Shown: positions 1 to 59,612 of the stretch, piece by piece
How positions within the stretch are numbered: the first letter of the stretch is position 1
How the letters are laid out: every line of letters begins with the position of its first letter
Assembly (NCBI GenBank): GCA_020353235.1
Contig: CP070693.1
Location: forward strand, 644,343-708,342
Origin: Dehalococcoidia bacterium
GTDB lineage: Bacteria > Chloroflexota > Dehalococcoidia > Dehalococcoidales > JAUYDJ01
Direction: 5' to 3'
Length of the DNA: 64,000 bases
Notes under the pieces: model-generated
Databases searched by the model: none
The model's input: the letters and a program-made list of their open reading frames with translations, nothing else
Told to the model about the DNA's origin: nothing
Position numbers and translations under genes: made by a program

Positions 1-432
1 CACTAGGGCGGCTTCGGCGCCGCTCAGCTGGCACAGGAGAGGCTCAACGTGGACCTGGCGGGAACCCCGCCGCCCGCTGTCCAGGTCATACTCCAGATTG
101 CAGTAGCCCGCAGCAACAGCGTCCATGGCGGATATTGCTTCCTGGCTCAGCAGAGCCCGACCGAGATTGGTGTGCAGTATCACCCCGGTAGCATTGACCG
201 CCGGATGCAGGCTGGGACTCTCCAGAAAATTGAGCTGAGCCGAAACTGCGGCCACTATATCATCGAGAGGGGGGCAGGGACTGCCCGCTGAGATAGCCTG
301 ACGGGCATCTTCAAGTTGCCTTCTGACCAAGTCCACCAGCAGGGTATGCGAGTAGGTCTGGCTGAGCCGCTTAAGCCGCCGGTCAGCAAGCAACCGGTCC
401 ACACTGGGCAGATGACGAAATTCGCTATTCAT
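1..432 (-). CDS. selA: L-seryl-tRNA(Sec) selenium transferase SelA, N-terminal 144 codons (gene runs off the window start)
   Basis: Absent from the ORF track because it runs off the edge. The reverse complement of 1..432 starts at ATG(432) and reads MNSEFRHLPSVDRLLADRRLKRLSQTYSHTLLVDLVRRQLEDARQAI...NATGVILHTNLGRALLS. The LPxxDRLL N-terminus and the NATGVxxHTNLGR motif are characteristic of SelA. It is divergent from selD. Confidence 0.85.
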   Translation of the reverse strand, partial: MNSEFRHLPSVDRLLADRRLKRLSQTYSHTLLVDLVRRQLEDARQAISAGSPCPPLDDIVAAVSAQLNFLESPSLHPAVNATGVILHTNLGRALLSQEAISAMDAVAAGYCNLEYDLDSGRRGSRQVHVEPLLCQLSGAEAALV

Positions 433-472
433 CGCCCGTATTCTACTACATCCAGCCTCAATTTCAAAGTTT

Positions 473-502
473 TTGCTTTAAATATCCGCTCAATGCTAAA
501 AT
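473..502 (+). promoter_or_regulatory. Candidate sigma70-type promoter for selD
   Basis: TTGCTT(473-478), 18-nt spacer, TAAAAT(497-502), about 40 nt upstream of ATG 542. Consensus matching by eye only. Confidence 0.35.
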
Positions 503-541
503 AGCAGACAAGACCAGGCTGATTCAGCAATTGAGGAGTCA

Positions 542-1592
542 GATGGAAAGAAAGCAAGACCCACGTTTAACCGAAAGTGTTCGTGGCGCCGGTTGAGCTT
601 CCAAGATAGGTCCGGGTGACCTCTTTGGGGCTCTAGGCGGACTACCGCTAATCTCCGACCCGAAGGTAATTCGAGGCATGGAGAGCCTGGACGACGCCGG
701 TGTCTACAAGCTGTCAGACGACCTGGCTATTATCCAGACCGTCGACTTCTTCACGCCCATAGTTGACGACCCCTATGCCTTCGGCCAGATTGCCGTCGCC
801 AACGCCCTGAGCGATGTCTACGCTATGGGCGGTAAGCCGCTGACTGCTCTCAACCTGGTATGCTTCCCGATAAACTCAATGGACGTCTCGGTTCTAGAGA
901 ACATCCTGAGGGGAGGCATCGCCAAAATGAACGAGGCGGGGGTAATCCTGATTGGCGGCCACAGCATTGACGATACCGAGCTGAAATACGGCCTGTCTGT
1001 TACCGGCACCGTCCACCCCGATAGACTGATCACCAATGCCGGCGCCGTCGCCGGGGATAAGCTTTTGCTTACCAAACCGCTGGGCACCGGCATTATCAAT
1101 ACCGCCCTGAAAGCGGGCATGGTGAGTGATGAGCTTGCCCGGAAGGTAACTGACTATATGGCTACCCTGAACAAAAAAGCCTCGGAATTAATGGCTGAAA
1201 TCGGAGTTCACGCCAGTACTGATATTACCGGCTTCGGCTTTCTGGGCCATTCGGCGCAGCTGGCCAAGGCCAGCCAGGTAGGCCTGGAATTTAACCTAGA
1301 CGCAATCCCCTACTTTAGCGAGGTCATCGACTTCGCCCAGCAGGGGCTGTGCCCCGCCGGGCTCTTCCGCAACCAGGAATACTACTCCTGCAAAGTAACT
1401 TTCCCCAAAGACGCACCACAGTATATACGCGACATTCTGTTTGATGCCCAGACCTCGGGTGGCCTGCTCATCTCCTTGGAGCCGGCCAAAGCTAAGCTGA
1501 TGCTGCGCCGGTTGCACCAGGCCGGCGTGAGTGACGCCGCCATCATTGGCGAAGTAGTCAGTGAGCCCAAAGGCAGGATTACCCTGAAGTAA
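542..1592 (+). CDS. selD: Selenophosphate synthetase SelD with an in-frame UGA (Sec) at 593-595 and an apparent 1-nt frame disruption at the C-run 600-602
   Basis: ORF 678..1592 is the SelD body (DDAGVY, FFTPIVDDPYAFGQIAVANALSDVYAMGGKP). Upstream, ATG 542 has a GAGGAG SD and encodes MERKQDPRLTESVRGAG-TGA-AS, the SelD glycine-rich loop with Sec where E. coli has Cys17. The next conserved residues, KIGPGDL, start at 603 but in the 678 frame. Confidence 0.8.
599..630 (+). promoter_or_regulatory. SECIS-like hairpin downstream of the selD UGA
   Basis: Core stem AGGUC(608-612)/GACCU(618-622) with loop CGGGU. The lower stem pairs 599-606 with 624-630, with A603 bulged and a U607/C623 mismatch. The apical loop lies 18-22 nt after the UGA. 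Confidence 0.5.
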
Positions 1593-1691: not shown

Positions 1692-4172
1692 ATGGCGGAG
1701 AAATCAAGCTCGCAGAAATCAGCGAAGGCTCATATCCACATGACCGGTATGACCTGCACCACCTGTGCCGCCACCATTGAGAAGGGGCTGGCGGATACGC
1801 TAGGCATTGACCAGGCCAAGGTCAGCTTCGCCTCGGAAAAGGCGGCGGTAGAGTATGACCCCCGTATGGTAAGCCTGGCCAAAATCAAGGGTAAAATCGC
1901 CGAGCTGGGCTACGCCACGGCGACCCGGAAATCAATCTTCCCGGTGGGCGGGATGACCTGTGCCTCCTGTGTCGCCCGCGTGGAAGAGGCACTAAAGAGC
2001 GCCCCCGGGGTAATCTCAGCCGATGTCAATCTGGCTTCGGAGAAAGCCACCGTAGAATATCTAGAGGGGACTGATATTGCCGAGCTGAGACGGGCGGTAA
2101 AAGAAGCCGGCTACGAGCTTGGCTCAGAGGCGGAGACCCTGGAAGATGTAGCTACCGCTACCCGCCGCGAGACGGGACGCCTGAGAAAGAGACTGATTAT
2201 AGCCGCGGCGCTGGCGGTGCCCATTTTTGCCCTTTCCATGTTTGTCCCCTCTTTCACCGGGAAGCCCTACCTGCTCTGGGCACTGGCCACGCCGGTGCAG
2301 TTCTGGGCGGGCTGGCGCTTCTACCGGGGCGCCTGGGGCGCCCTCAAGCACCGCACCGCCGACATGAATACCCTGATTGCCGTCGGCACCTCAGCCGCTT
2401 ATCTCTACAGCATGATTGCCATTCTCTTGCCCGCCCTTTTTGCCGCCGGCGGGCTGGAACCCCACCTCTATTTTGATACTTCCGCCATGATTATCACCCT
2501 CATTCTGCTCGGCCGCTTTTTTGAAGCCAGAGCCAAGGGACAGACCTCAGAGGCAATCAAGAAGCTCATCGGCATGCAGCCCAAGACGGCTCTGGTCATC
2601 CGCAACGGTGAAGAAACCGAAATCCCAATTGAGGATGTCCAGGTCGGTGACCTCATTCTGGTCAGGCCGGGGGAGCGGGTGCCGGTGGATGGCATCGTCC
2701 GCCGCGGGCACTCCACCATTGATGAATCAATGATTACCGGGGAGAGCATCCCGGTGGAGAAAAAGAGCGGTGATGAGGTCATCGGCGCCACCATCAACAA
2801 GACGGGCAGCTTTCGCTTTGAGGCCACCAAGGTGGGCAAAGACACCACCCTAGCGCGGATTATACGGCTGGTGGAAGAAGCCCAGGGGAGCAAGGCGCCC
2901 ATTCAGCGCCTGGCCGATATTATTGCCAGCTACTTTGTGCCCACCGGGATTGGCATTGCCATAGTTACTTTTATCATCTGGTACATTGTGGGACCTGCCC
3001 CCAGCCTCACCTTCGCCCTGCTCAATTTTATTGCCGTGCTCATCATCGCCTGCCCCTGCGCCCTAGGACTGGCCACGCCCACCGCAATTATGGTCGGCAC
3101 CGGCAAGGGCGCCGAACACGGCATTCTGATTCGCGATGCCGAGGCGCTGGAGAGGTCTCACCAGATAAACACCGTGCTGCTGGACAAGACCGGCACGCTG
3201 ACTCAGGGCGAGCCGGAGGTGACTGATATCGTTGCTGCCGCCTCAATATCTCAGGAAGAGGTGCTTAAACTGGCTGCCTCGGCAGAGCGAGGCTCGGAGC
3301 ACCCGCTGGGGGAAGCCATCGTCAGGGCAGCTGCAGCCAAAAAGCTAAAGCTTTATCCCGTCGCTGAATTTAACGCCATCCCGGGACACGGTATTGAGGC
3401 TTCGCTCAAAAAGAAGCCGCTTGTTCTGGGTAACCTGAGACTGATGGAAAGCCGAGGGCTTGCCCTCAATGGCATGGCTAAAGAAGCCGAGCGCCTGCGC
3501 GACGAGGGCAAGACAGTGATGTTCCTCGGCTGGGACAGCCAGGTGGTGGGCATCATCGCCCTGGCTTATACCCTCAAAGCCAACGCCAGAGACGCCCTGA
3601 AGGCACTGCACCGAATGGGTATCGAGGTGGGTATGCTCACCGGAGATAATCGGCGCACCGCTGAGGCGATTGCCCGAGAGGCAGGCATTGACCGCGTCCT
3701 GGCTGAGGTTCTACCCGAACACAAGGCGCAGGAGGTCAAGAAGCTTCAGGGTAAAGGCAAAGTAGTCGCCATGGTGGGGGACGGCATAAATGATGCCCCG
3801 GCGCTAGCCCAGGCTGATATCGGTATTGCCATCGGCACCGGCACCGATGTCGCCATGGAGACCGGTGATATCACCCTGATTAGCGGTGACTTGACCGCCA
3901 TCGCCACTGCGGTAGCGCTGAGCAAGCGCACCATGAGAACGATAAAGCAGAATTTATTCTGGGCTTTCGCCTATAATACGGCTCTTATCCCGGTGGCGGC
4001 CGGTGTCCTTTATCTTGTCTTCGGGCAGGGCGGTGTTCCCGCCGGACTCAACTTTGTCCTCGGTAACTATGGCTTCTTAAACCCGATTCTGGCAGCCGCC
4101 GCCATGGCGGCCAGCTCACTGACGGTGGTGTTCAACTCACTTCGTCTCCGCCGATTTAGCCCAGCCAAATAA
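1692..4172 (+). CDS. copA: Copper-translocating P1B-type ATPase
   Basis: Two N-terminal HMA domains (GMTCTTC, GMTCASC), a CPC transmembrane motif ([11 protein letters not shown]), the DKTGTLT phosphorylation site and the GDGINDAP hinge. Confidence 0.95.
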
Positions 4173-4185
4173 AGGAGGTGTCATT

Positions 4186-4374
4186 ATGGCAATTGACCCG
4201 GTTTGTAAGATGGAAGTAGACGAGAAGACAGCCGCGGCGACCTCAGAATATGAGGGCAAAAAGTACTACTTCTGTTCCGTGGGCTGCAAGAAAGCTTTTG
4301 ACCAGAACCCGGAGAAATACCTGCGCCGGGGAGGGGAAGGCGAAGCTGGAGCTGACATCGCCGACGTTGCCTGA
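4186..4374 (+). CDS. YHS/TRASH-type metal-binding domain protein
   Basis: MAIDPVCKMEVD...YYFCSVGCKKAFDQNPEKYL is the YHS pattern. It starts 13 nt after copA and has an AGGAGG SD. Confidence 0.8.
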   Translation: MAIDPVCKMEVDEKTAAATSEYEGKKYYFCSVGCKKAFDQNPEKYLRRGGEGEAGADIADVA

Positions 4375-4390
4375 CTTAATCCGGTGGGGA

Positions 4391-4630
4391 TTACCGGGAT
4401 AACAGCTTATCCAACAGTGGCTGGTCAAAGCCAACCACAATCTCGTCACCAATGACGATAACCGGCACGCCCATCTGCCCCGACTTCTGTATCATCTCCC
4501 GGGCTTTCTCCCTGTCCTCAGCCACATTGTGGTCAACGTAGGCAATCCCCTTCCCAGTAAGGTACTCCTTGGCTCTCCTGCAGTGGGGACAGGTAGGGGT
4601 GGAGTAGATAACTACTTTTGGCTCAGCCAT
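4391..4630 (-). CDS. Glutaredoxin-like small redox protein (NrdH/YruB-like)
   Basis: 79 aa with a VVIYSTPTCPHCRRAKEYL active site (CPHC) and a GVPVIVIGDEIVVGFD thioredoxin-fold C-terminus. Confidence 0.8.
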   Translation of the reverse strand: MAEPKVVIYSTPTCPHCRRAKEYLTGKGIAYVDHNVAEDREKAREMIQKSGQMGVPVIVIGDEIVVGFDQPLLDKLLSR

Positions 4631-4784
4631 TTCCCACCTCCAACCGCCGGTTCCTACCGGCTGCCTGAAAATCTTAATCAGAGTCTATCGGGAATGTCAA
4701 GCTCCGGCTCGCTTGATAGCCCCAGGCTATCCTGTTACTATTACTGGATAGTCCCTGAATTAACCGGTGAGGGAGCGAAGAGCT

Positions 4785-6938
4785 ATGTCACACGAAAAAG
4801 ACGAACGTGCCGCAACACTGGCTTCGCTTCGCTCTATTTTATGCCCGCGCTCGGTAGCCGTCATCGGCGCCTCCCGAAAAGCAGGCACCATCGGGCAGCT
4901 CATCTTTCAATCCCTGCTCCAGGCCAAGTTTAACGGCGTCGTCTATCCGGTGAACCCCAACGCCAAAGCCATAATGTCAGTCAAAGCCTACCCTTCCGCG
5001 CTTGATATACCCGGCAGTGTTGACCTGGCCATTATCGTGGTGCCGGCACCACTGGTAGCCAAGGTAGCTGATGAGTGCGGACGCAAAGGGGTGCACGCCT
5101 TAATCGTTATCTCCGATGGCTTCCGGGAGCGGGGGGCGGAAGGCGCCGCCCGGGAAAACGAGCTGAGAGATATTGCCCTGGGACACGGCATGCGCCTGGT
5201 TGGTCCCAACTGCATGGGGGTCATCAATACCAACCCCTCGGTAAACCTTAACGCCACTTTTTCCCGCATCTACCCGCCACGAGGTGACATTGCCCTGCTC
5301 TCCCAGAGCGGGGCAATGGGGCTGGTTATTCTGGAACATGCCCAGAACTTAAACCTGGGTATCTCCACCTTTGTCAGTGTCGGTAACCGCACTGACATCT
5401 CCTCCAATGACCTGCTGCAGTACTGGGAGCAAGACCGAAAGACCCGAGTCATCCTCCTCTACCTGGAATCTTTCGGTAATCCCAAAAAGTTCAGCCGCAT
5501 CGCCCGGCGGGTCTCAGTAAAAAAACCGATTGTGGCCGTGAAGGGTGGGCGCAGCTCGGCAGGCTCGCGGGCGGCGTCATCCCACACCGGCGCTCTGGCC
5601 ACGCCGGAGATAGTCTCCGACGCCCTTTTCCACCAGGCCGGCATCATCCGGGTAAACTCGGTAGAAGAACTCTTTAATCTGGCTACCCTGCTTTCCAACC
5701 AGCCCATACCGAAGGGGAAAAGGCTGGTAATCGTCACCAACGGCGGCGGGCCGGGTATAATTGCCGCCGATGCCTCGGAGCAGCACGGCCTGGCGCTGCC
5801 CGAATTTTGCCCGGAGACGAAACAGCGGCTCAAAGCCGTTATCAAGCGTGATATTGAACTGAACAACCCCCTTGACCTCACCGCCGGTGCCGGCGCTGAT
5901 GAATTTGAGGGGGTGCTCAAAATACTGGCCCAAGACCCGGACAGTGACGGCGTGCTGACCATATTCATCCCGCCTGTCGTTACCGACCCCCAGGCGATGG
6001 CCGAGGCCATCAGGCGGGTCAACCCCGCCTTCCGGCGGCAGGGCAAGCCACTGGTAGCCTGTTTTATGGGGCAGAAAGGGACACCAAGGAAGCTGGGCCC
6101 AGTGGGGAAATCGGTGCCCAGCTATCTCTTCCCGGAAGACGCCGTTTCAGCACTAGCCAAAGCCGCCCACTACCACGAACTGGCCCGGCAGCCGAAGGGC
6201 GCCATCCCCAAGATTGGCGGTATCAAGCCGGAGAGGGCACGAAAGATAATTCAAAAGGCGATGGCGCAGAATAGCCGGCGGCCACTCTGGCTTGCCCCCG
6301 ATGATATCTTCGGCCTGCTGGACAGCTACGGGATACGCTCAGTACCGACCTTACTTGCCCGGACACCGACTGAGGCCGCCGCCCACGCCTCAAAAATGGG
6401 CTTTCCGGTGGTGGTTAAGCTCAACTCGCCCAGTATCGTGCACAAGACCGATGTCGGTGGGGTTATTCTTGACCTTGAATCTGAAAGCGAGGTAAAAGAG
6501 GCCTTTAATGATATTAAAGCCAGGCTTACCAAGCTTGGCCGCGAGCGCGAGATGGACGGGGTAATCGTGCAGAAGATGATACGGGAAGGCACCGAAGTCA
6601 TCGTCGGCGTCACCCAGGACCCGTCTTTCGGACCGCTGATTATGTTCGGGCTCGGCGGCATCTACGCCGAGCTGCTCAAGGACATCGCAGTGAGACTGCA
6701 CCCCCTCACCGATTTGGATGCCAGGTCACTGATTGGCTCGGTCAAGATGGCCAAGCTTCTTGATGGCTTCCGGGAGCTGCCCCCCGCCGACACCAAGGCG
6801 CTGGAGGACCTGCTGCTCTGCTTCTCGGCACTGGTGGAGGATATCCCCGAAATTGCCGAGCTTGACCTGAACCCGGTCAAGGTAATGCCGAGAGGCGAAG
6901 GCTACTGGGTGGTCGACGCCCGGTCGATGGTGAAATAA
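4785..6938 (+). CDS. ADP-forming acyl/acetyl-CoA synthetase, fused alpha-beta form
   Basis: N-terminal CoA-binding region (SVAVIGASRKAGTIG), a succinyl-CoA-synthetase-like ligase region and a C-terminal ATP-grasp region (GFPVVVKLNSPSIVHKTDVGGV). I chose ATG 4785 because it has a GAGGGAG SD; the track's GTG 4767 lies inside that SD. Confidence 0.85.
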   Translation: MSHEKDERAATLASLRSILCPRSVAVIGASRKAGTIGQLIFQSLLQAKFNGVVYPVNPNAKAIMSVKAYPSALDIPGSVDLAIIVVPAPLVAKVADECGRKGVHALIVISDGFRERGAEGAARENELRDIALGHGMRLVGPNCMGVINTNPSVNLNATFSRIYPPRGDIALLSQSGAMGLVILEHAQNLNLGISTFVSVGNRTDISSNDLLQYWEQDRKTRVILLYLESFGNPKKFSRIARRVSVKKPIVAVKGGRSSAGSRAASSHTGALATPEIVSDALFHQAGIIRVNSVEELFNLATLLSNQPIPKGKRLVIVTNGGGPGIIAADASEQHGLALPEFCPETKQRLKAVIKRDIELNNPLDLTAGAGADEFEGVLKILAQDPDSDGVLTIFIPPVVTDPQAMAEAIRRVNPAFRRQGKPLVACFMGQKGTPRKLGPVGKSVPSYLFPEDAVSALAKAAHYHELARQPKGAIPKIGGIKPERARKIIQKAMAQNSRRPLWLAPDDIFGLLDSYGIRSVPTLLARTPTEAAAHASKMGFPVVVKLNSPSIVHKTDVGGVILDLESESEVKEAFNDIKARLTKLGREREMDGVIVQKMIREGTEVIVGVTQDPSFGPLIMFGLGGIYAELLKDIAVRLHPLTDLDARSLIGSVKMAKLLDGFRELPPADTKALEDLLLCFSALVEDIPEIAELDLNPVKVMPRGEGYWVVDARSMVK

Positions 6939-11380: not shown

Positions 11381-11876
11381 CTACGGGCCGCTTTTCGGCC
11401 CAGAACCAGGTGTTAATATTGAAGAAACTGACCGGCGCCAGAAACAGAGTAGCCAGGGCTAATAACAGCATCACCACATCCAGAACCAGGGCACCGATGG
11501 TCAACATTCTAACCCGGGCAAGCTCCTCCAGTACACCGAAACAGCCGCAGGGCTCGGCGCCGAATCCGTGAGCAATCAGCCAGCTGTTATTGGCGATAAA
11601 GATGGCGATCAGCCCCACCGCCAGAACGGCGGCCGGCCGCGCCAAGATGCCGCTGATTAAGAGCAAGCCGACAGCTATCTCAATAACCGGAAGCCAGAGA
11701 TAAATCAGCGGGGCGAAGGGCAGTACGAAATCGGCGAAGGGGGTAAAGAAAATGAAGAAGACATCATACTCATTGAATAATTTACCCGCCCCGGCAAGAA
11801 GAAAGACCAGCCCCAGGACGATAGCTGCCCCCGGCCCGAGCCAGCGTTTAAAGCGAACTGATTTTATTATCCCCAT
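11364..11876 (-). CDS. MauE/DoxX-like integral membrane protein
   Basis: 170 aa with about four TM helices and an EPCGCFG motif typical of the MauE family. Its ATG is embedded in the HerA 3' end (GAGGAGCTATGGGGATAA). Confidence 0.6.
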   Translation of the reverse strand: MGIIKSVRFKRWLGPGAAIVLGLVFLLAGAGKLFNEYDVFFIFFTPFADFVLPFAPLIYLWLPVIEIAVGLLLISGILARPAAVLAVGLIAIFIANNSWLIAHGFGAEPCGCFGVLEELARVRMLTIGALVLDVVMLLLALATLFLAPVSFFNINTWFWAEKRPVDEEVG

Positions 11877-13477
11877 AGCTCCTCAATGTCCTTTTCCGCC
11901 TGCTCTTTAGTCTCCGGCCCTTCCCCTGATGTCAGCTCTTTATATGACCGGACTGAGCCATACTCCCTAGTCTTGATGACCACCGGCATCGGCAAGGCAT
12001 GGCCAAAGATTAACGCCTGCTGTCTTGATTCCAGCCTGGCGAGCACCGATTTAAGCTCGCTTTTGCCCGATACCCCAGCCAGGACACTATCTATATCACG
12101 CTCGTTGTCCAGAAGGCAGGCAATCTTGGTCCCCATCTGCGACATTACCTCACTGTCAATGCCACTGGGGCGCTGGTCAATCACCAGCAGGGTGACATTG
12201 TACTTGCGCATCTCGCGGGCGATGGTACCGAAGATGGTCTGGCTGGAGACCTCCGGGTTGAGGAACTTGTGCGCTTCCTCAATGGTTATCACCAGGGGAC
12301 GGGGGCGTGCACCAGCCTCACCCATCGCCCTTTCCATCCGGTCGCGATACTGGGCATGGATGCGGCGGGTAAGCAGATTGGCCACCAACACATAGGCGGT
12401 AATATCGGTATAGCGGCCGAACTCCAGCACCACATTTATCCCCCGGTCAAGATAGTCCAGAGCGCTCTTTACCGGATTATCCGGAGCCTGCGGCACCAGA
12501 AAGGGGAGCCGGCCAATAGTCTGCAGCCCCCGCAGCAGGTTCTGAAAGGTGCTCTCATGAATGTTCAGCTCCCGGAGCAGTTCTTTCGCCTCTTCACTCT
12601 CCCTCAGGTCCAGAGTGCTCTGTAACCAGTTTTTACCCAGCCGCCGGCGCAACTGGTATACCGCTTCTACGGCGGGCTCGGTAAGATTCAGCGTCTGCCG
12701 CAGCAGGGTGACATCCTCCGGCTCGATTTCGTCATAGCCGATTCTGACCACAAAATCGGTGCTCACCTTGCGACGTCGTGAACTCTCCTCATCAAGGGTG
12801 AAAACGGCCACGCTGGAGGGGAAAAGCTGTTTTAGCGACTTGACCACCCGGCCCCCCTCGCTGCTACCCGCCCAGCCGTACTCACTGTGCATGTCAAAGA
12901 GTAAGTTCACCGCCGTACTCTTCTGCAGCATGCCGATGAGCAAAATGCGGGTTAAGAAAGTCTTGCCGGTGCCACTTTTGCCGAAGACACCATTGGAGCG
13001 CTTGACCAGTTCCTCCAAATTAAGGCAGATCTTGGTCTCCATATCCAGCGGCGTGCCGAGGTAGAACCTTCTCTCGTCCTCTCTACCGAAGACCAGCTCC
13101 ACATCCCGCTGTGAAGCCAGATTTACCACTGAGAAGTGACTGGGCACCGTCTTCACCGGCTGGGGCCCTTCCAGCATACTGGCCGCATCACCGCCAATGG
13201 TGAGGTAGGGCATCACCCGCAGTGTGCCGTAGGTCGCCGTGCCGGCCAGCACCTCAGCGATAAAGTCATCAGAGACATCGGGCGGGGTAATGGCCAGCCT
13301 TGGGTCGGTTACCCCCAGACTGATATCGGTTATCATGCCGAAGAAGCGCCGCTTCTGCCCTTCAACGGTGACATAGCGCCCCACCGCCATATCCTCCACC
13401 GATACCGGGCGGTCCAGTTTGACCTCTACCCCCTTCTCCAGGGAACCGGAGGTAACTATACCCAGCCGCTCGGTCAC
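11867..13477 (-). CDS. HerA-like (DUF87/FtsK-HerA superfamily) hexameric ATPase
   Basis: N-terminal HAS-barrel-like segment (LGIVTSGSLEKGVEVKL...GRYVTVEG...FFGMITDISL), Walker A GKSGTGKT, Walker B/EEAH (VITIEEAHKF) and LLVIDQRPSGID. The GTG start overlaps the upstream stop (GTGA). Confidence 0.8.
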   Translation of the reverse strand: MTERLGIVTSGSLEKGVEVKLDRPVSVEDMAVGRYVTVEGQKRRFFGMITDISLGVTDPRLAITPPDVSDDFIAEVLAGTATYGTLRVMPYLTIGGDAASMLEGPQPVKTVPSHFSVVNLASQRDVELVFGREDERRFYLGTPLDMETKICLNLEELVKRSNGVFGKSGTGKTFLTRILLIGMLQKSTAVNLLFDMHSEYGWAGSSEGGRVVKSLKQLFPSSVAVFTLDEESSRRRKVSTDFVVRIGYDEIEPEDVTLLRQTLNLTEPAVEAVYQLRRRLGKNWLQSTLDLRESEEAKELLRELNIHESTFQNLLRGLQTIGRLPFLVPQAPDNPVKSALDYLDRGINVVLEFGRYTDITAYVLVANLLTRRIHAQYRDRMERAMGEAGARPRPLVITIEEAHKFLNPEVSSQTIFGTIAREMRKYNVTLLVIDQRPSGIDSEVMSQMGTKIACLLDNERDIDSVLAGVSGKSELKSVLARLESRQQALIFGHALPMPVVIKTREYGSVRSYKELTSGEGPETKEQAEKDIEELWG

Positions 13478-14076
13478 GGTCTTATCCTCCCCAGAATTGC
13501 CTTCAGCTGGCTCAGCTGGCCGCTGAGCAGTATGGCCAGCTCTCTAGCGGCGGCTACCAGAAAGTCGTGCTGGTCTTCATAGGCCTGACTCATCTGGCGT
13601 AGTACCGCCGCCACAAGCTCATCATTAGAAATAGGAAGCGGATTGCTAATCAGGATATTGAGGAAGTCAAAGGACTGGCTGAAATCTTTGACTTCCGCTG
13701 GGGGGCAAAGATAGACAAAGCCGTGGATTCGGGCTGGCTTGGGGGGCAGGTAGTGATAGAGCCTGTCGTCCTGCCGGTGCCCGACGACCAGGGTGCTGAA
13801 TTCACTTCTAAACAGCTTCATCAGCTGGGGGCTCTGGCGGTAGATTCCCTCCTCAGACGCTTCGTCTTTGCCGCGGGCAATGGGGCGCCGCCCCGGCTCA
13901 AGGCTGGTGGTAGTAGCATTATAGACCACGCCGTAAAGCTCCACCGATCCGTCTCTGGTCTTTACCAGGCTGCCCAGCGGCGGTGACTGGTAAAGTTCAT
14001 AGCACTGCGCCACAAAGTCAGTGGTGCTGGCGGCAATAACTTCGCCAACTCTATCCGGGTGTGTAGAAGTGCTCAA
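13474..14076 (-). CDS. Hypothetical 200-aa protein with a beta-barrel-like N-terminus, translationally coupled to the HerA-like ATPase
   Basis: TTG start 8 nt after GAGG. The N-terminus VGEVIAASTTDFVAQCYE...LGSLVKTRDGSVELYGVVYN resembles a HAS-barrel. I recognised no other motif. Confidence 0.6.
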   Translation of the reverse strand: MSTSTHPDRVGEVIAASTTDFVAQCYELYQSPPLGSLVKTRDGSVELYGVVYNATTTSLEPGRRPIARGKDEASEEGIYRQSPQLMKLFRSEFSTLVVGHRQDDRLYHYLPPKPARIHGFVYLCPPAEVKDFSQSFDFLNILISNPLPISNDELVAAVLRQMSQAYEDQHDFLVAAARELAILLSGQLSQLKAILGRIRP

Positions 14077-14082
14077 TGGTGA

Positions 14083-14170
14083 ACCTCATCCCCTTAATCT
14101 CCCTCTCCTTGATAAGGAGAGGGAGAAGAGTGGATTAAGAAGGGCTGCGCCCTTCTAACTTCCCCTTCTT
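14083..14170 (-). repeat. Intercistronic two-hairpin repeat, copy 1 of 3
   Basis: ACCTCAtcCCCTTAATCTCCCTCTCCTTgatAAGGAGAGGGAGaagagtggaTTAAGAAGGGCtgcGCCCTTCTAActtcccc. Hairpin 1 is 14099-14125 (12-bp perfect stem) and hairpin 2 is 14135-14158. It is homologous to 58154-58240 and 59515-59612. Confidence 0.8.
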
Positions 14171-14294
14171 TGCCCTTTTTGCCCTGCTTGCTTCGCCCTT
14201 GCTTAGTTCTCTTTCTTAACTTTTGACTGTTTGGGTTTCTTTATGTTCTTTCTTCCCTTCTTGCCCACCTCGGCCTCCTCCATAATGAAATACT

Positions 14295-14744
14295 TTAATC
14301 AGCGCTTTCCTCAGGCGCAACCAGTATCCGGACTGCCCAGCGGGTATTGGCGGCATTAATCATGAGGTAAAATGTCCCCTTCCCTGCTATGGTAAAGACA
14401 TCAGCCTCCCTTTCCCGCGAATTGGCTGCGATGATTACCGGCATATCCGGCTCTTCTACATTGTAGACCATTATCTGAAAAGTGCCTATTGACTGGTCAT
14501 TGAGCTCCGAGGGTACATGCACCCAGTCAATAACCCAGGACTCACTCTCAATGGTAAACGGCTCGGTGGTTTTGGTACCAATCCCCGTCCACTCGGCAAC
14601 CAGCCCCGCCCCCGCCAGGACTATCACCTCCGGTGGCACCTCTGATTCCGCCTCTGCCGGGGCTTCCATCTTCGGCGTCTGCATCAGGCAACCCCCCAGC
14701 CCCAGAACCACGATAGCTGAAATTAGTAATATGGCTTGTCGCAT
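14295..14744 (-). CDS. Small lipoprotein of unknown function
   Basis: Signal peptide with lipobox (MRQAILLISAIVVLGLGGC). The mature part looks beta-rich and shows no recognisable motif. Confidence 0.7.
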   Translation of the reverse strand: MRQAILLISAIVVLGLGGCLMQTPKMEAPAEAESEVPPEVIVLAGAGLVAEWTGIGTKTTEPFTIESESWVIDWVHVPSELNDQSIGTFQIMVYNVEEPDMPVIIAANSREREADVFTIAGKGTFYLMINAANTRWAVRILVAPEESAD

Positions 14745-14753
14745 TTTAACCTA

Positions 14754-15953
14754 TTAAATCCACCTCGTTCTTTTGCTCTGGCTCTTGGCGGAAGTGAGGG
14801 TGGGGAGGCGTTCCGCAACCAGTGATGACTCCACCAGCTGCCAGAAGTTCTCCCGGTCGGCGGTGGTGATTACTGCCTGCTCGTGGGCTTCACTCAGCGC
14901 CACCGGGTAGCCCAGCCCGCGCCAGCACTGGTCCAGAACCAGACTGTGGACCAGATTAAGCAAGCTTTCATCGGTAGCGACCCACTTCGGCATCTCTATC
15001 CGGGCAACCTCATCCTCCAGCCTGATATAGCTGAAACAGACCTGGTGCTCGCCGTAGTGCTTGCGCACCACCGATGACTGGCTGATAAAGACGGGTGACC
15101 GCTGCCCTTCACCCAATAGATTAAAGAAAAGCTCCCGGTCCTGAACCCCGGCTACTTTATCGCACTCTTTTTCCTTACCCGGCGGGCAATTAAGGTCACA
15201 GTCAGTAGGCTCATAAGGGCACAGCGCCAGACGGAGCACATTGACCACATCGGTGCTGCGTGGAAAGCTGATGTAGCTGGCCAGGGCAAGCCGACGCTGC
15301 TTACCTAGCTTCCTTAATTCCTCAAGGTGGCGCAGAAAGCCCTCCCCCAGCATGGCCCCGGTGACAAAATCGGGGTAAGCCTCCAGCCCCCACAGGATAA
15401 GCGAGCCATCAACCAGCGCCAGCAACGGGCTATCCGGGGGCAGCCCGGCCGCCAGCTCAGCCAGCTGATGGCACTCCTCAACCGCCCGCTTAATGCCGAG
15501 TAGCGTCCCTTCAATGGGCTGCTCCCGCCCCCTGGTGGGCACGACTACCAGGTCTTTGTCCTCGGCATAGAGACGGGGAAAGCTGTCTAAGAAAGCGCTA
15601 GGCTCCGCCCCGTAATGAAGCCAGGCGGCGCCGATATTAATTAAGTAGCACCTGGTGGACTTATGGCGGTCAACATCAATATGGGAGCCATCGGTAGCCA
15701 GAACATTGAATTCCGAGGGCGGGGGCGGGGCTTCACAGCCCTGACTGAGTCCATCTAATAAGTCAGCCACCAGCCAGGTAATCTTACCCCGACTGATGGC
15801 GATTTTTCTTTTAAGGTCGGCAAGGTCAATAGCTTGGCTAGCGGCAATCTCCAGGGCATACTGCCGCCGACGGTTTCTCTCTTCAGTGCCCACTCTCAGA
15901 CGGGCAACCATACCACCAACCTGCGCCGCCAGCTTGCTTAAATCCAGTGACAT
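14754..15953 (-). CDS. NurA-like nuclease domain protein
   Basis: 399 aa with the NurA-type N-terminal catalytic pattern (NVLATDGSHIDVD) and a second DGS motif (LALVDGSLILWG). It lies in the same strand block as the HerA-like ATPase, and NurA-HerA pairing is established in archaea and some bacteria. Confidence 0.65.
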   Translation of the reverse strand: MSLDLSKLAAQVGGMVARLRVGTEERNRRRQYALEIAASQAIDLADLKRKIAISRGKITWLVADLLDGLSQGCEAPPPPSEFNVLATDGSHIDVDRHKSTRCYLINIGAAWLHYGAEPSAFLDSFPRLYAEDKDLVVVPTRGREQPIEGTLLGIKRAVEECHQLAELAAGLPPDSPLLALVDGSLILWGLEAYPDFVTGAMLGEGFLRHLEELRKLGKQRRLALASYISFPRSTDVVNVLRLALCPYEPTDCDLNCPPGKEKECDKVAGVQDRELFFNLLGEGQRSPVFISQSSVVRKHYGEHQVCFSYIRLEDEVARIEMPKWVATDESLLNLVHSLVLDQCWRGLGYPVALSEAHEQAVITTADRENFWQLVESSLVAERLPTLTSAKSQSKRTRWI

Positions 15954-22668: not shown

Positions 22669-25107
22669 CTAATCCAGACTTATCGGGTCAATATCCACCG
22701 CCCACCCCTGGGGAAAGGGTATCTCCGCCAGAAAAGAGGGCAGCTCGGCACCGCGAAGCATAATCTGCCAGCGAAACCGCCCCCGCCGGCGGTGGATAAA
22801 AGCCGGTGCTGGCCCGACAAGGCTCAGGCCAGCAATGCCGCGGGTATCCCTTTCGGTAGTAATCAGCTGCTTCATCCTCTCCGCTTCCCGCTGGCCGCGG
22901 AAATTATTGGTATGGCTAAAAATTAGGCGTGCCAGCTGGGTGAAGGGAGGGTTATGGAGCTGGCGCCGGTAGGCGAGCTCCTGTTTATAGAAGAGGGTAT
23001 AGTCATGTTTGGCAGCAGCTTGAATGGCATAGTGCTCCGGGGCATAGGTCTGGATAATAACCTGCCCCCACTGACTGCCCCGCCCGGCTCGGCCCGCCAC
23101 CTGACTCAAGAGCTGAAAGGTCCTCTCCCCGGCTCGAAAATCGGGCAGATTCAAGCCGGTATCAGCGCTAACCACCCCGACCAGAGTGACCAGGGGTAAA
23201 TCCAGCCCCTTGGCAATCATCTGGGTGCCAATCAGGATATCAGCCTGATGGTCGCGGAACTTGTTCAGGCTTTCCTGATGGGCATGCTTGCCTTTAATAA
23301 CATCACTGTCCCAGCGCAGCCGTCTGGCCTGGGGCAGGACATAGCCGGTCTCCTGCTCCAGCTTCTGGGTACCTATGCCCAGAAACTTGATGCGCCGGCC
23401 TGAGCAGCGCGGACAGGCCTGGGGCACTGCCGTCCGGTGGTTGCAATGGTGGCAGACCAGACTGTTTTCAGCAAGGTGATAGGTAAGGGTAACCTCGCAG
23501 CGCCGACAGCGATAAACAAAGCCGCAGTTGCGGCACTGAATAAAGGTAGCCGCCCCCCGCCGGTTGAGAAACAGAATCACCTGCTCCCGATTGACTACAG
23601 CTCTGGTCATCGCCTCGGCCAGAGAGCGACTGAACAGGCTTCGATTGCCCGCCTTAAGCTCCTCCCTTAAGTCAACGATTTCAACCTCAGGCAAGGGTGA
23701 GCCCTCAGCCGGGGTAACCCGCTCCGGAAGCCGGAGCAGCTGGTATTCCCCCCGCTCGGCACGGTAAAAGGTCTCTACATCGGGGGTGGCACTGCCCAGA
23801 ATAACCACCACGCCGCTGAGCTCCGCCAGCTTTATAGCTGCCTGGCGGGCATGGTAGCGGGGCGACTTATCGTGCTGCTTGTAGGTCCACTCATGCTCTT
23901 CATCAATGACAATGAGGCCCAGTTCAGGCTGCGGGGCAAAGAGGGCACTCCGCGGGCCGATAACGACATCAAACTCTCCCTTGCGGATTCGCTGCCAGGT
24001 ATCAAACTGCTCTCCCAGAGATAGCTTGCTGTGGAGCACGGCTACCCTGTGGGGGAAGCGGGCGGCAAATCTCTCTATCGTCTGGGGGGTGAGCGAAATT
24101 TCGGGGACCAAAACAATGCCCCGCCTGCCCCGCCTCACCGTTTCCGCCAGCGCCTGGAGATAGACCTCAGTCTTGCCGCTGGCGGTAACCCCGTGGAGCA
24201 GAAAAACGGCCGATGAAGCCCCCTCAGTATTAAGCAAACTGGACCTGATGCGCGCCAGGGCTGATTTTTGCGCTGCGGTAAGCGTCAGCGGTGTTGAAGG
24301 CGTAATCCCCTCATAAAAACCCGGCTCACGCCTTACCTCAACCTGCTGAAAGTGAGCCAATCCCTGGCTGACCAGAGCCTGAGCCACCGCTTTATCAGTC
24401 TTGACCGCCTGCCTCGCCTCCCGCCAGGACACCGGCTGCGGCTGGTGAGCCAGAAAGTCGAGCAGGGCAGCCTGCTTGCGAGCTCTCTTCTCCCGCAGCT
24501 TAACCGCCGCCTGCCTGGCCTGGTCAATGGCCACCGCCAGACCGAGATAAAGCTCCTTTTTGGGCTTTACCCGGAGCGGCTCCATCTCATAGCTTCGGAC
24601 CAGTAGCCCCCGCCCAACCAGCTGGGAGACAAGGCTCGGCGCCTTTTTCTTGCCCAATACCTTCTCCAGTTCCTTCAGGGAAACCCGGCTCCGCTCCTGA
24701 ACCAGGTCAAGGACATATTTCTGTTCTTGATTAAGGGAGGTGGGGTCATAATCGCGCCGCTTTGGGGGCGGGGTGACGAAAGTGAGCACCTTACGCTCAA
24801 AACCGGGGGGTAGCATCAGAGCCAGGGCGTCAAAAAGGGGCGATAGATAGTATTCACTCAGCCAGCGGGCTAAAGATAACTGATGGGGGGCAAGAATGGG
24901 CTGGGGCTCGATAACGCCAGCAATCTCTTTGGTCTCTTCAACCACCGGGTGAGTGGTCAGTTCGGTAACAATACCCTGGAGAAGCTTCTCGCCGAAGGGA
25001 ACCCACACTGCCTGCCCGACGGCGACCTCTAAATCGGGGGGTATAATGTAGCTGAAGGTCCGGCGCTGGGCAATTGGTGAATTAACACTAACCTCAGCAT
25101 ACCCCAC
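22669..25107 (-). CDS. priA: Primosomal replication-restart helicase PriA
   Basis: N-terminal 3'-DNA-binding domain, helicase motifs (GVTASGKTEVY, DEEHE) and the Cys-rich insertion (CRNCG...CRRC...CHHC...CPRC). Confidence 0.95.
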   Translation of the reverse strand: MGYAEVSVNSPIAQRRTFSYIIPPDLEVAVGQAVWVPFGEKLLQGIVTELTTHPVVEETKEIAGVIEPQPILAPHQLSLARWLSEYYLSPLFDALALMLPPGFERKVLTFVTPPPKRRDYDPTSLNQEQKYVLDLVQERSRVSLKELEKVLGKKKAPSLVSQLVGRGLLVRSYEMEPLRVKPKKELYLGLAVAIDQARQAAVKLREKRARKQAALLDFLAHQPQPVSWREARQAVKTDKAVAQALVSQGLAHFQQVEVRREPGFYEGITPSTPLTLTAAQKSALARIRSSLLNTEGASSAVFLLHGVTASGKTEVYLQALAETVRRGRRGIVLVPEISLTPQTIERFAARFPHRVAVLHSKLSLGEQFDTWQRIRKGEFDVVIGPRSALFAPQPELGLIVIDEEHEWTYKQHDKSPRYHARQAAIKLAELSGVVVILGSATPDVETFYRAERGEYQLLRLPERVTPAEGSPLPEVEIVDLREELKAGNRSLFSRSLAEAMTRAVVNREQVILFLNRRGAATFIQCRNCGFVYRCRRCEVTLTYHLAENSLVCHHCNHRTAVPQACPRCSGRRIKFLGIGTQKLEQETGYVLPQARRLRWDSDVIKGKHAHQESLNKFRDHQADILIGTQMIAKGLDLPLVTLVGVVSADTGLNLPDFRAGERTFQLLSQVAGRAGRGSQWGQVIIQTYAPEHYAIQAAAKHDYTLFYKQELAYRRQLHNPPFTQLARLIFSHTNNFRGQREAERMKQLITTERDTRGIAGLSLVGPAPAFIHRRRGRFRWQIMLRGAELPSFLAEIPFPQGWAVDIDPISLD

Positions 25108-25130
25108 TGGTCATACTCCAACCAGACCGC

Positions 25131-25541
25131 TTACGCCTGCTCTGGCTCTGGTTCCGGTTCTGGCTCTTCGGGTTCCGTTTCCCCGACTTCCTTTTCGCGA
25201 CCGACCTGTTTCTCTTTGATGCGAGAGGCCTTGGCACTGAGTCCGCGCAGGTAGTAAAGCTTAGCCCGACGCACTTTCCCATGCCGCACTATTTCCACTT
25301 TTTCCACCAGTGGGGAGTTTAGGAGAAAGGTGCGCTCCACGCCTACCCCGTAGGCAACACGCCTCACCGTAAAGCTAGCCCCGGCGCCACCACGGCGGAC
25401 CCTGATGACCACTCCCTGAAATACCTGGGTGCGCTCCCGGTCACCTTCCACCACCTTATTGCTGACCTTGACCGTATCGCCGGGGGCGAAGGCTTGAATT
25501 TTAGGATTTAGTTTGACATCAACTACTGAGGCAATATCCAT
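25131..25541 (-). CDS. rplS: 50S ribosomal protein L19, with an acidic Pro/Glu-rich C-terminal tail
   Basis: [29 protein letters not shown]...SFTVRR is the L19 core. About 20 extra residues follow ([21 protein letters not shown]). Confidence 0.95.
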
Positions 25542-50340: not shown

Positions 50341-51741
50341 GTGTCAATAAAAATAGCGTTGCCCAAGGGGCGTCTTCTGGCGGAGACCGCCCGCCGGCTG
50401 CAGCTGGCTGACCTGGGACTGGCCGGTTACTACCCCAAAACCCGCCTTTACCGCCTCACCTCCGAAAGATATCCTGACCTCTTTGCCAAGATATTCCACG
50501 AAAAGGATATCCCGATTCAGGTAGCGGTGGGCAACTATGATTTGGGTATCTGCGGGCTGGACTGGGTGGAAGAGCTGCTGGCCAAGTATCCGAGCTCGGC
50601 TCTGGTCAAAATCAGCAATTTAGGCTACGGCGAGGGCGGGCTGTACATGATGACCAGCCGCGCTGGCGGAGCACCCACGCTGAAAGACGCTCCGGCCAAG
50701 ATGAATACCATACGTATTGCCAGCGAGTACCCCAATCTGGCGGAAGCCTTTGCCCTGAGTAACCGGCTGAGGCGGTTCAGCGTCTTCCCCCTGTGGGGCG
50801 GAGCCGAGGTCTACCCGCCGGAAAATGCCGAGATGGCACTGGTCTCAAGAAGAAAGGGAGAGCCGCTGAGTAATGACCTGGTGCCCCTGAGTGAACTTAT
50901 GGGCTTCAGCGCCTTCCTGATTGCCAACCAGGCCAGCTGGGAAGAGAAAGACCTGAGTGAGATAACCTCGGCTATTGAGAGGGCAGTTTTGCCACCGCTT
51001 GAAGAAGAGACGCCTGCGGTGGCCAGCACTGGAACGCCGGTGCCCTACCCGGTTGGGGACACTGTGCGGCTGGCTATACCCGATGGACACCAGCAGCCGC
51101 CCACCCGGCAGCTACTCGATAAAGCCGGCATACAGGTTGATGATTACCCCTCGGCATCAGGCAACCGCCGCCCGACCACCAGCCTAGGCGGGGTCAGTAT
51201 CAAGGTAATCAGGCCCCAAGATATGCCGCTGCAGGTCGCCAACGGCAATTTTGACCTGGCCATTACCGGCCGGGACTGGCTCAGGGAGCACCGCTACCAG
51301 TTTCCCTCCAGCCCGGCGGTGGAGCTGCTCGACCTCAAATCGGGGCGGGTAAAAATAGTGGCCGTAGTCAGCCAAGACTTGCCGGTAAATGATAGCCGCG
51401 ATTTGCGGCAACTCAGCAACGGCGGCGAGAGCGGGCTGAGGGTGGCTTCAGAGTACGTCAATATTGCCGATAAGTATGCCCGCGACAACCACCTCGGCCG
51501 CTACCGGGTGGTGCCTACCTGGGGGGCCAGCGAAGCCTTTCTGCCCGAGGATGCCGACTTGCTGATTGAGAATACCGAGACCGGGCAGACCCTGGCCCGG
51601 CACAAGCTTAAAATTATTGATAATCTTTTTGAGTCGACTGCCTGTCTCATTGGCCGCAAAGACAGCGCTCGCTCTAAAAAGGGTGAAAAGATAAAGGCAA
51701 TCAGGGAAATACTGAGAGACGCCGTGGAGGAAGACAAATGA
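50341..51741 (+). CDS. hisG: ATP phosphoribosyltransferase HisG: tandem fusion of two short-form HisG modules (466 aa)
   Basis: Module 1 (aa 1-215) has KIALPKGRL and DIPIQVAVGNYDLGICGLDW, but its PRPP loop is degenerate (EMALVSRRKGEPLSNDL). Module 2 (aa 241-466) has RLAIPDG and DMPLQVANGNFDLAITGRDW, with a canonical PRPP loop (DLLIENTETGQTLARHKL). Confidence 0.85.
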   Translation: MSIKIALPKGRLLAETARRLQLADLGLAGYYPKTRLYRLTSERYPDLFAKIFHEKDIPIQVAVGNYDLGICGLDWVEELLAKYPSSALVKISNLGYGEGGLYMMTSRAGGAPTLKDAPAKMNTIRIASEYPNLAEAFALSNRLRRFSVFPLWGGAEVYPPENAEMALVSRRKGEPLSNDLVPLSELMGFSAFLIANQASWEEKDLSEITSAIERAVLPPLEEETPAVASTGTPVPYPVGDTVRLAIPDGHQQPPTRQLLDKAGIQVDDYPSASGNRRPTTSLGGVSIKVIRPQDMPLQVANGNFDLAITGRDWLREHRYQFPSSPAVELLDLKSGRVKIVAVVSQDLPVNDSRDLRQLSNGGESGLRVASEYVNIADKYARDNHLGRYRVVPTWGASEAFLPEDADLLIENTETGQTLARHKLKIIDNLFESTACLIGRKDSARSKKGEKIKAIREILRDAVEEDK

Positions 51742-58240: not shown

Positions 58241-59512
58241 TTATAGCTTTATATTTTTTATTTCGGCGATGTCTTTACGGTAGTGACAGCCCTTGAAATT
58301 AATTCGGAAAATATTAGCATAAACCTTTTTTCGGGCTTCAACAAGAGTCTCGCCCCGGGCGGTTACCGTCAGCACCCGCCCCCCGCTGGTCAATACCTCC
58401 CCATCTGAGCCAAGCCTAGTGCCGGCCTGAAAAACGACAATATCTTTATCCAGCTCATCCAGCCCGCTAACCGGGAAGCCGGTCTGGTAGCTACCAGGGT
58501 AGCCACCGGAAGCCATAACCACCCCGACGCAGGCGTCCTGGCTCCACTCAATTTTTATTTGGCCCAGTTTATGGTTAATTACCGCCAGCATAATATCAAC
58601 CAAGTCGGTCTTCAGCCGGGGCAGGGTAACCTGTGCCTCCGGGTCACCAAACCGGGCATTAAATTCTAACACTTTTGGCTCATTATTGTTAACTATCAGA
58701 CCGCCGTAGAGTACACCCTGATAGGCCCTGCCTTCAGCGAGCATCGCCTTTACCGCCGGCAGCATAATAGCCTGCTGAATTTTTTGTGCCAGCGCCGCAT
58801 TATAAAAGGGCGGCGGGCTGTAGCTACCCATACCGCCGGTATTGGGGCCTCGGTCACCGTCAAATACCCGCTTGTAATCGCAGGCCGGCACTATCGGGAC
58901 CACGCTTTTGGCATCGGTGAAGGCAAAGACGCTTATCTCCCGGCCGGTTAAATGCTCTTCAATCAACACCCGCTCCCCCGCTGCCCCCAGCGCCTTTTGC
59001 TCCATAATCCAGGCAAGAGCATCCAGAGCCTCTTTCACTGATTCGGCCACGATTACCCCCTTCCCCGCCGCCAGCCCATCCGCCTTGACCACAATCGGGG
59101 GTATCTGCTTCTGGACATAGTCTTTAGCCTGGGCATAATCAGCGAAGGTGGCGCTCTGGCCACAGGGGATATTGTATTTATGCATTAATTCTTTGGCGAA
59201 GACCTTGCTTGACTCTATCTCGGCGGCTTTTTTGGTGGCGCCGAATATAGCCATGCCCCTCCTGATAAACTCATCGGTAATGCCCTCCGCCAGCGGGGCT
59301 TCGGGGCCGACCACGGTGAGGTCAATCTTCTTTTCCCGGGCTACTTTGAGTAGCGACTCAATATCAGTAGGCTTGATATCCAGGTTCTGGGCAAGCTGGG
59401 CGGTGCCGGCATTACCTGGCGCGGCGTAAATATCATTAACCTTGGAGCTCTGAGCTATCTTCCAGACTAAGGTATGCTCCCTCGCCCCACCCCCAACGAC
59501 TAGTATCTTGAT
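58241..59512 (-). CDS. purD: Phosphoribosylamine-glycine ligase PurD, probable non-canonical AUC (or AUA) start
   Basis: The track ORF starts at GTG 59314 (MVGPEAPL). The same frame stays open to 59512 and encodes IKILVVGGGAREHTLVWKIAQSSKVNDIYAAPGNAGTA..., which aligns residue for residue with the PurD N-domain (E. coli MKVLVIGNGGREHALAWK...). TAA sits immediately upstream at 59515-59513. Confidence 0.9.
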   Translation of the reverse strand: MKILVVGGGAREHTLVWKIAQSSKVNDIYAAPGNAGTAQLAQNLDIKPTDIESLLKVAREKKIDLTVVGPEAPLAEGITDEFIRRGMAIFGATKKAAEIESSKVFAKELMHKYNIPCGQSATFADYAQAKDYVQKQIPPIVVKADGLAAGKGVIVAESVKEALDALAWIMEQKALGAAGERVLIEEHLTGREISVFAFTDAKSVVPIVPACDYKRVFDGDRGPNTGGMGSYSPPPFYNAALAQKIQQAIMLPAVKAMLAEGRAYQGVLYGGLIVNNNEPKVLEFNARFGDPEAQVTLPRLKTDLVDIMLAVINHKLGQIKIEWSQDACVGVVMASGGYPGSYQTGFPVSGLDELDKDIVVFQAGTRLGSDGEVLTSGGRVLTVTARGETLVEARKKVYANIFRINFKGCHYRKDIAEIKNIKL

Positions 59513-59514
59513 TT

Positions 59515-59612
59515 ACCTCACCCCCTGTTTCCCCCTCTCCTTCAAAGGAGAGGGGGAGGAATGGATTTGAAGGGGCTTCGCTCCTTCAAACTACCCCCTG
59601 CTACTCTCTTCT
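59515..59612 (-). repeat. Intercistronic two-hairpin repeat, copy 3 of 3 (fills the guaA-purD spacer)
   Basis: ACCTCAccCCCTGTTTCCCCCTCTCCTTCAAAGGAGAGGGGGAGGaatggatTTGAAGGGGCttcGCTCCTTCAAactaccccctgctactctcttc. Hairpin 1 has a perfect 12-bp stem. Confidence 0.8.

Follow-up and report, generated by a model that had tools for sequence, protein, structure and literature searches.

A probable selenocysteine-containing SelD encoded in a single reading frame in a Dehalococcoidales-like bacterium

Background

Selenocysteine (Sec) is encoded by 19% of prokaryotic SelD genes, always at the same position (Mariotti et al. 2015, PMC4561486), and SelD constitutes the second-largest prokaryotic selenoprotein family (2026 review, PMC13188914). 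Chloroflexi were listed among the phyla with selenoproteins as early as 2006 (PMC1794560). The stretch of DNA analysed here (64,000 nucleotides, referred to as the window) comes from a Dehalococcoidales-like bacterium and carries a selD gene close to its left edge. An earlier note on this DNA reported that the Sec-containing loop and the enzyme body of this gene lie in different frames, separated by an extra C directly after the UGA codon, and proposed a homopolymer error, a recently broken selD, or +1 recoding stacked on Sec recoding as the cause. The locus raises the question of whether the gene is indeed split, and how its UGA codon is read. Our analysis indicates that positions 543..1592 very likely constitute an intact single-frame selD encoding a selenophosphate synthetase with a catalytic selenocysteine. 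Coordinates of the relevant features are collected in Table 1.

Table 1. Features of the selA-selD locus, in window coordinates
Feature	Position	Strand	Basis
5' part of selA (L-seryl-tRNA(Sec) selenium transferase), cut by the left edge of the window	1..432	-	TIGR00474 and Pfam
selA-selD divergent intergenic region, 110 bp, presumed to hold both promoters	433..542	.	Weak sigma-70-like match
Shine-Dalgarno-like GAGGAG	533..538	+	Read from the sequence; 4 nt upstream of the selD start
selD coding sequence, predicted Sec at codon 18	543..1592	+	Single-frame translation; SelD profiles; end-to-end alignment with structures 2YYE and 3U0O
In-frame UGA, putative selenocysteine codon (Sec18)	594..596	+	Aligned to E. 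coli Cys17; TGA or TGC/TGT in relatives
Putative bacterial SECIS-type hairpin, intragenic	595..633	+	RNAfold, -17.2 kcal/mol; bSECIS constraints; conserved in Sec-type relatives
Lower stem of the hairpin	595-599/629-633	+	RNAfold
Middle stem of the hairpin	601-605/624-628	+	RNAfold
Upper stem of the hairpin, AGGUC/GACCU, 5 bp	608-612/618-622	+	RNAfold
Apical loop CGGGU, 5 nt	613-617	+	RNAfold

Results and discussion

Reading frame of selD

A scripted coordinate check places the whole coding sequence, 349 codons and a stop, in one frame with a single in-frame TGA. The ATG at 543, the TGA at 594, the AAG at 603, and the ATG at 678 are all congruent modulo 3, and the TGA is the sole stop of this frame within 501-700; the loop and the enzyme body thus lie in the same frame. 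The earlier note was right to read a GAGGAG Shine-Dalgarno sequence followed by an ATG, and an opening peptide MERKQDPRLTESVRGAG followed by TGA and AS-KIGPGDL, but it set both codons one base too low: the ATG occupies 543-545 (542-544 reads GAT) and the TGA 594-596 (593-595 reads TTG). Translation of the single frame gives MERKQDPRLTESVRGAG-*-ASKIGPGDLFGALGGLPLISDPKVIRGMESLDDAGVYKL...GRITLK. The start context (..SRSQ-MERKK..) recurs in the closest relatives, L001 and L002.

The remaining signs of a split gene are explained in the same way. Positions 600-602 read TCC and not CCC, and the local C-run is CC (601-602), the very state that the earlier note had equated with an ordinary Sec-encoding selD. 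The TAA thought to close the frame of position 678 upstream sits at 568-570, in another frame, while 567-569 is TTA, an in-frame Leu codon of the segment 'PRLTE'. The TGA at 617-619 does exist; it belongs to the frame that contains position 542, which the gene does not use. The GTG codons placed at 576 and 582 begin one base later (577-579 and 583-585) and are out of frame, with AGT at 576-578 and CGT at 582-584. The reported frameshift is a counting artefact: positions were given one base too low before about 600 and correctly after it, and an extra C was assumed in order to bridge the mismatch. As the apparent double recoding reduces to a coordinate slip, there is no frameshift to explain, and the three proposed causes fall with it.

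Related loci point in the same direction. A protein search for SelD returned thousands of homologs, and a scan of one genome per species yielded 80 loci in which the upstream frame was read and the Sec column scored; the closest of them belong to Dehalococcoidales MAGs (91-92% identity). All 76 scorable loci are collinear in one frame, so that the comparison with orthologs, also suggested in the earlier note, calls for a frameshift in none of them. The other four remained unscored, two being cut by a contig end and two falling outside the motif, and one of each kind shows an in-frame TGA by eye. L001 and L002, close relatives that were assembled independently, contain the same TGAGCTTCCAAGATAGG as the window and read TGAGCTTCCAAG identically to it. 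A loop and body separated by an extra C at 600-602, whether through an assembly error, decay into a pseudogene, or +1 frameshifting, is accordingly left with next to no probability: nothing in the sequence speaks for it, given that the stops at 617-619 and 568-570 both lie outside the frame of the gene.

SelD family membership and the catalytic loop

With Cys put in at the TGA, the 349-residue product of the single frame matches two NCBIfam equivalog profiles of SelD over residues 4-346, namely TIGR00476 (full length, 379.9 bits, cut-off 125) and NF002098 (339.7 bits, cut-off 299). In phmmer alignments, the product is matched to E. coli SelD (PDB ID: 3U0O) over its residues 7-346 and to Aquifex aeolicus SelD (PDB ID: 2YYE) over its residues 8-341. 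The residue encoded by the TGA (U18) pairs with Cys17 of the E. coli enzyme and K21 with its Lys20 (GAG-[U]-ASK versus GAG-C17-GC-K20 in 3U0O), as the earlier note had proposed when it called the gene a Sec-encoding selD; the 2YYE alignment agrees, the UGA column corresponding to a Cys of the A. aeolicus protein. The AIR-synthase-like N- and C-terminal domains (PF00586 and PF02769) are found in P0001, a database protein 100% identical to residues 46-349, and both are carried by 120 of 120 homologs among the matches listed. Judged by these profiles and alignments, the gene product is a full-length SelD, a selenophosphate synthetase with a predicted ATP-dependent activity. Around the predicted Sec it would read GAG-U-ASKIGPGDLFGALGGLPLISDPK.

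A different product would result if UGA 594 were a genuine stop. The upstream ORF of 17 residues would then be meaningless, and a protein of 304 residues would be made from Met 678. This reading agrees with automatic ORF calling, as the ORF list indeed gives only the start at Met 678, and with the database entries: the closest database proteins among the matches listed (92-100% identical) have 304 residues and are called from the internal Met 46. Such a protein, however, would be devoid of the catalytic Sec/Cys-Lys loop corresponding to Cys17 and Lys20 of the E. coli enzyme, a cost of the Met 678 start that the earlier note had foreseen and that the closest database proteins illustrate. The SelD profiles, moreover, match residues 4-45, which precede this start.

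Peptide conservation across phyla covers both flanks of the TGA. The upstream segment, RLTE[ST]V.G[AS]G, recurs in lineages ranging from Chloroflexota to Desulfobacterota, Spirochaetota, and Cloacimonadota, and translation must therefore start before the UGA and run across it. Within the 80 loci, the Sec column holds TGA in 64 and a Cys codon (TGC/TGT) in 12. This pattern of TGA and Cys codons in one alignment column indicates that the in-frame TGA of the window is not a chance occurrence. Taken with the hairpin described below, these observations make termination at UGA 594 very unlikely, and the full-length, Sec-containing SelD remains the preferred reading.

The database calls P0001-P0008 and many others are mostly 304, 316-319, or 328 residues long and start after the Sec-UGA; the catalytic loop is consequently missing from predicted proteomes in a systematic manner. 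For expression, modelling, and annotation pipelines, positions 543..1592 with U at residue 18 should be used instead of the 304-residue call.

SECIS-type hairpin downstream of the UGA

The RNA following the UGA is predicted to fold into an interrupted hairpin of 15 bp (RNAfold; Table 1), which begins one base after the first base of the UGA, at position 595. The bSECIS model requires an apical loop of 3-9 nt, an upper stem of 4-16 bp, and a UGA-to-loop distance of 16-37 nt, together with a G among the first two loop nucleotides, with G or U as the usual next base, and a minimum free energy of at most -7.5 kcal/mol (PMC13188914). The hairpin of the window lies within all of these limits: its loop of 5 nt starts with C-G-G, its upper stem has 5 bp, 16 nt (597-612) separate the UGA from the loop, and its energy is -17.2 kcal/mol.

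On the single sequence, the energy of the hairpin is not significant (z = -0.2 to -2.2, dinucleotide shuffles). No SECIS-type Rfam family was matched in a search of the whole window at gathering thresholds or of positions 400-1700 at E of 10 or less, which returned one tRNA-Ala and two chance snoRNA matches. Because of the weak single-sequence shuffles and the lack of an Rfam family, comparative tests were used instead. In the first, the native fold of the 14 codons after the Sec/Cys codon was compared with synonymous recodings of the same codons. The hairpin of the window scores z = -1.85, with 5% of the recodings folding as well. Sec-type genes have a mean z of -1.37 (69% below -1) versus -0.31 in Cys-type genes; the difference has a Mann-Whitney p of 4e-4, a value that is optimistic since the sequences are phylogenetically related.

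Base pairing was also counted in an alignment of 65 Sec-type sequences. Columns 17-23 and 27-33, which make up the apical helix, pair with each other in 85.5% of cells, compared with 14-48% when the partner columns are slid, and the pair at columns 17/33 is found as 20 G-C, 11 C-G, and 10 G-U pairs, i.e., with swaps from G-C to C-G. Of the 65 Sec-type genes, 63 have a full apical hairpin in one or the other of two registers, versus 2 of 12 Cys-type genes. RNAalifold on the same 65 sequences recovers only a core of 3 bp because the two stem registers coexist, hence the use of pair counts on named structures. The presence of a SECIS-type hairpin that is specific to Sec-type genes directly after the UGA speaks further against a genuine stop at this codon.

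The two registers are distributed unevenly. The window and its closest relatives (L001-L003) share the register AGGUC/GACCU with a 10-bp lower stem, whereas most other Sec-type sequences have GUCCRGG/CCUGGAC; the long lower stem is common only to the closest relatives and is missing from more distant ones. Variability of the stem register is expected for bacterial SECIS elements. The register of this lineage might also reflect co-evolution of its SECIS with a divergent Dehalococcoidales SelB, and SelD might be the selenoprotein that maintains the Sec trait in such streamlined genomes; both ideas start from the register difference, and we regard them as speculative and improbable. A second small hairpin (GGCGG-ACUA-CCGCU) is predicted at 636-649 (+), just 3' of the SECIS-type one.

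TGA usage in the window

The UGA of selD could, in principle, be read as a standard amino acid, either by reassignment (Trp or Gly, as in genetic codes 4 and 25) or by SECIS-independent near-cognate readthrough. The finding in favor of this reading is that neither a selB nor a tRNA-Sec gene was detected in the 64-kb window (ARAGORN, Rfam, and NCBIfam annotation of about 50 ORFs), whose lone tRNA is tRNA-Ala. Of the 46 genes with family support in the window, however, 8 terminate in TGA, and an internal TGA occurs in selD alone, which excludes a genome-wide reassignment. In related loci, the UGA column alternates with Cys only and never with Trp or Gly. Furthermore, selA adjoins selD, and selB and tRNA-Sec lie beside selD in Dehalococcoidia relatives (see below). 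Decoding as a standard amino acid is thus given a very small probability, and Sec remains the favored reading of the codon.

A mechanical scan for further TGA-interrupted genes produced about 70 frame pairs, nearly all of them in non-coding frames. Two were examined and rejected as selenoprotein genes. At 13474-14154 (-), the segment upstream of the TGA has neither a start codon nor coding character, while 22669-25260 (-) corresponds to priA, whose profile match starts at residue 3 without any extension.

selA and the selenocysteine machinery

The gene divergent from selD is cut by the edge of the window. Its 144-residue translation (1-432, -) matches positions 1-142 of the 455 positions of TIGR00474 (selA) with E = 9.7e-41, and the Pfam SelA and Se-cys_synth_N families match it above their gathering scores. 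The syntenic gene of L001 is a full-length selA (552.7 bits versus a cut-off of 267.9). The only known role of selA is the synthesis of Sec-tRNA(Sec). One sigma-70-like match was found upstream of selA (467..440, -; 10 of 12 positions), the number of such matches being no higher than in shuffled sequences. Elsewhere, the window carries ordinary chromosomal genes, including copA, feoB/fur, secDF, priA, rplS/trmD, ftsAZ, opp, and arg, his, and pur genes.

Two Dehalococcoidia MAGs have genes of the Sec machinery next to selD. In L030, selD is followed by selB at 3922-5778 (361.5 bits with TIGR00475, cut-off 242) and tRNA-Sec at 5783-5882 (-). In L038, tRNA-Sec (2735-2828) stands directly upstream of selD. 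Together, selA and the Sec-type selD suggest that the Dehalococcoidales-like genome is probably that of a selenocysteine user, with selB and tRNA-Sec presumably located elsewhere in it. The compact Sec clusters of L030 (2971-5882) and L038 differ in layout from the divergent selA/selD pair in the lineage of the window.

On these grounds, a mechanism can be proposed. Translation would start at ATG 543, after the GAGGAG, and the hairpin at 595-633 would act as a bacterial SECIS at UGA 594-596. Its apical loop would presumably be bound by SelB together with GTP and Sec-tRNA(Sec), and SelB, competing with RF2, would bring Sec to the A site. Without a change of frame, translation could then proceed through ASKIGPGDL into the enzyme body. 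The resulting SelD would make selenophosphate, which the divergently encoded SelA would use for Sec-tRNA(Sec). As the selenophosphate made by SelD would feed the Sec-tRNA(Sec) synthesis of SelA, SelD would depend on its own pathway.

Comparison with known systems

The closest known counterpart is the Sec-type SelD of A. aeolicus (PDB ID: 2YYE and 2ZOD), a member of the same family with Sec at the same position of the N-terminal glycine-rich loop. The motif GAG-U-A-x-K-[IV]-GPGDL of the window is almost identical to 'SSGCAAKVGPGDL' in the crystallized protein, in which Cys presumably replaces the native Sec. The two proteins come from different lineages and share about 40-50% identity, as estimated by eye from the 2YYE alignment. 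In the class of Sec-containing bacterial SelD as a whole, the SECIS is intragenic and follows the UGA directly, as in the window; what sets the window gene apart is the lineage-specific lower stem of its putative SECIS, beginning one base after the first base of the UGA. E. coli SelD (3U0O) belongs to the same family and has the same architecture, the alignment spanning residues 7-346, with its Lys20 kept as Lys21, but it has a Cys (TGC/TGT-type codon) where the window gene has UGA and, probably, Sec.

Among bacterial elements, the SECIS of E. coli fdhF serves as the experimental paradigm. The hairpin of the window has no sequence similarity to it and is considered a putative SECIS; it does conform in full to the bSECISearch model of a stem-loop right 3' of the UGA (Zhang and Gladyshev, per PMC13188914). 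With +1 frameshifting, as in the autoregulation of prfB/RF2, the window gene has in common only recoding at or near a UGA, whereas the defining trait of such genes, protein halves in different frames, is absent from selD. A Sec-type selD with an intragenic SECIS next to selA is of an ordinary, already known kind. The biological weight of the locus is correspondingly small, Sec-containing SelD with an intragenic SECIS being textbook selenium biology.

Other features of the window

Several unrelated loci deserve mention. A HerA-like ATPase (11867-13477) and a NurA-domain nuclease (14754-15953), both on the minus strand, flank two ORFs (13474-14076 and 14295-14744, -) for which no family match was found; the region 11867-15953 (-) is a HerA/NurA-type cluster that may act in DNA repair or defence.

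The purD gene at 58241-59512 (-) has an apparent non-canonical start, ATC (59512-59510), which an in-frame TAA (59515-59513) immediately precedes. The listed ORF, starting at GTG 59314, lacks profile positions 1-68. Translated from the ATC, the product begins with IKILVVGGGAREH... and matches TIGR00877 from position 1 with 528 bits, versus 443 bits for the listed ORF. In the guaA-purD spacer (about 59525-59600, -), two GC-rich inverted repeats, TTTGAAGGAGCGAAGCCCCTTCAAA and CCCCCTCTCCTTTGAAGGAGAGGGGG, were noticed by eye as possible terminators or a possible regulatory element.

The ORF after hisZ (50341-51741, +; 466 residues) contains two diverged HisG domains that are not separated by a stop codon. 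Its halves (residues 1-241 and 242-466) are 29% identical (E = 2e-28), and the second has its own ATG at 51064, so that the region is either a tandem-fused hisG or two genes in the same frame.
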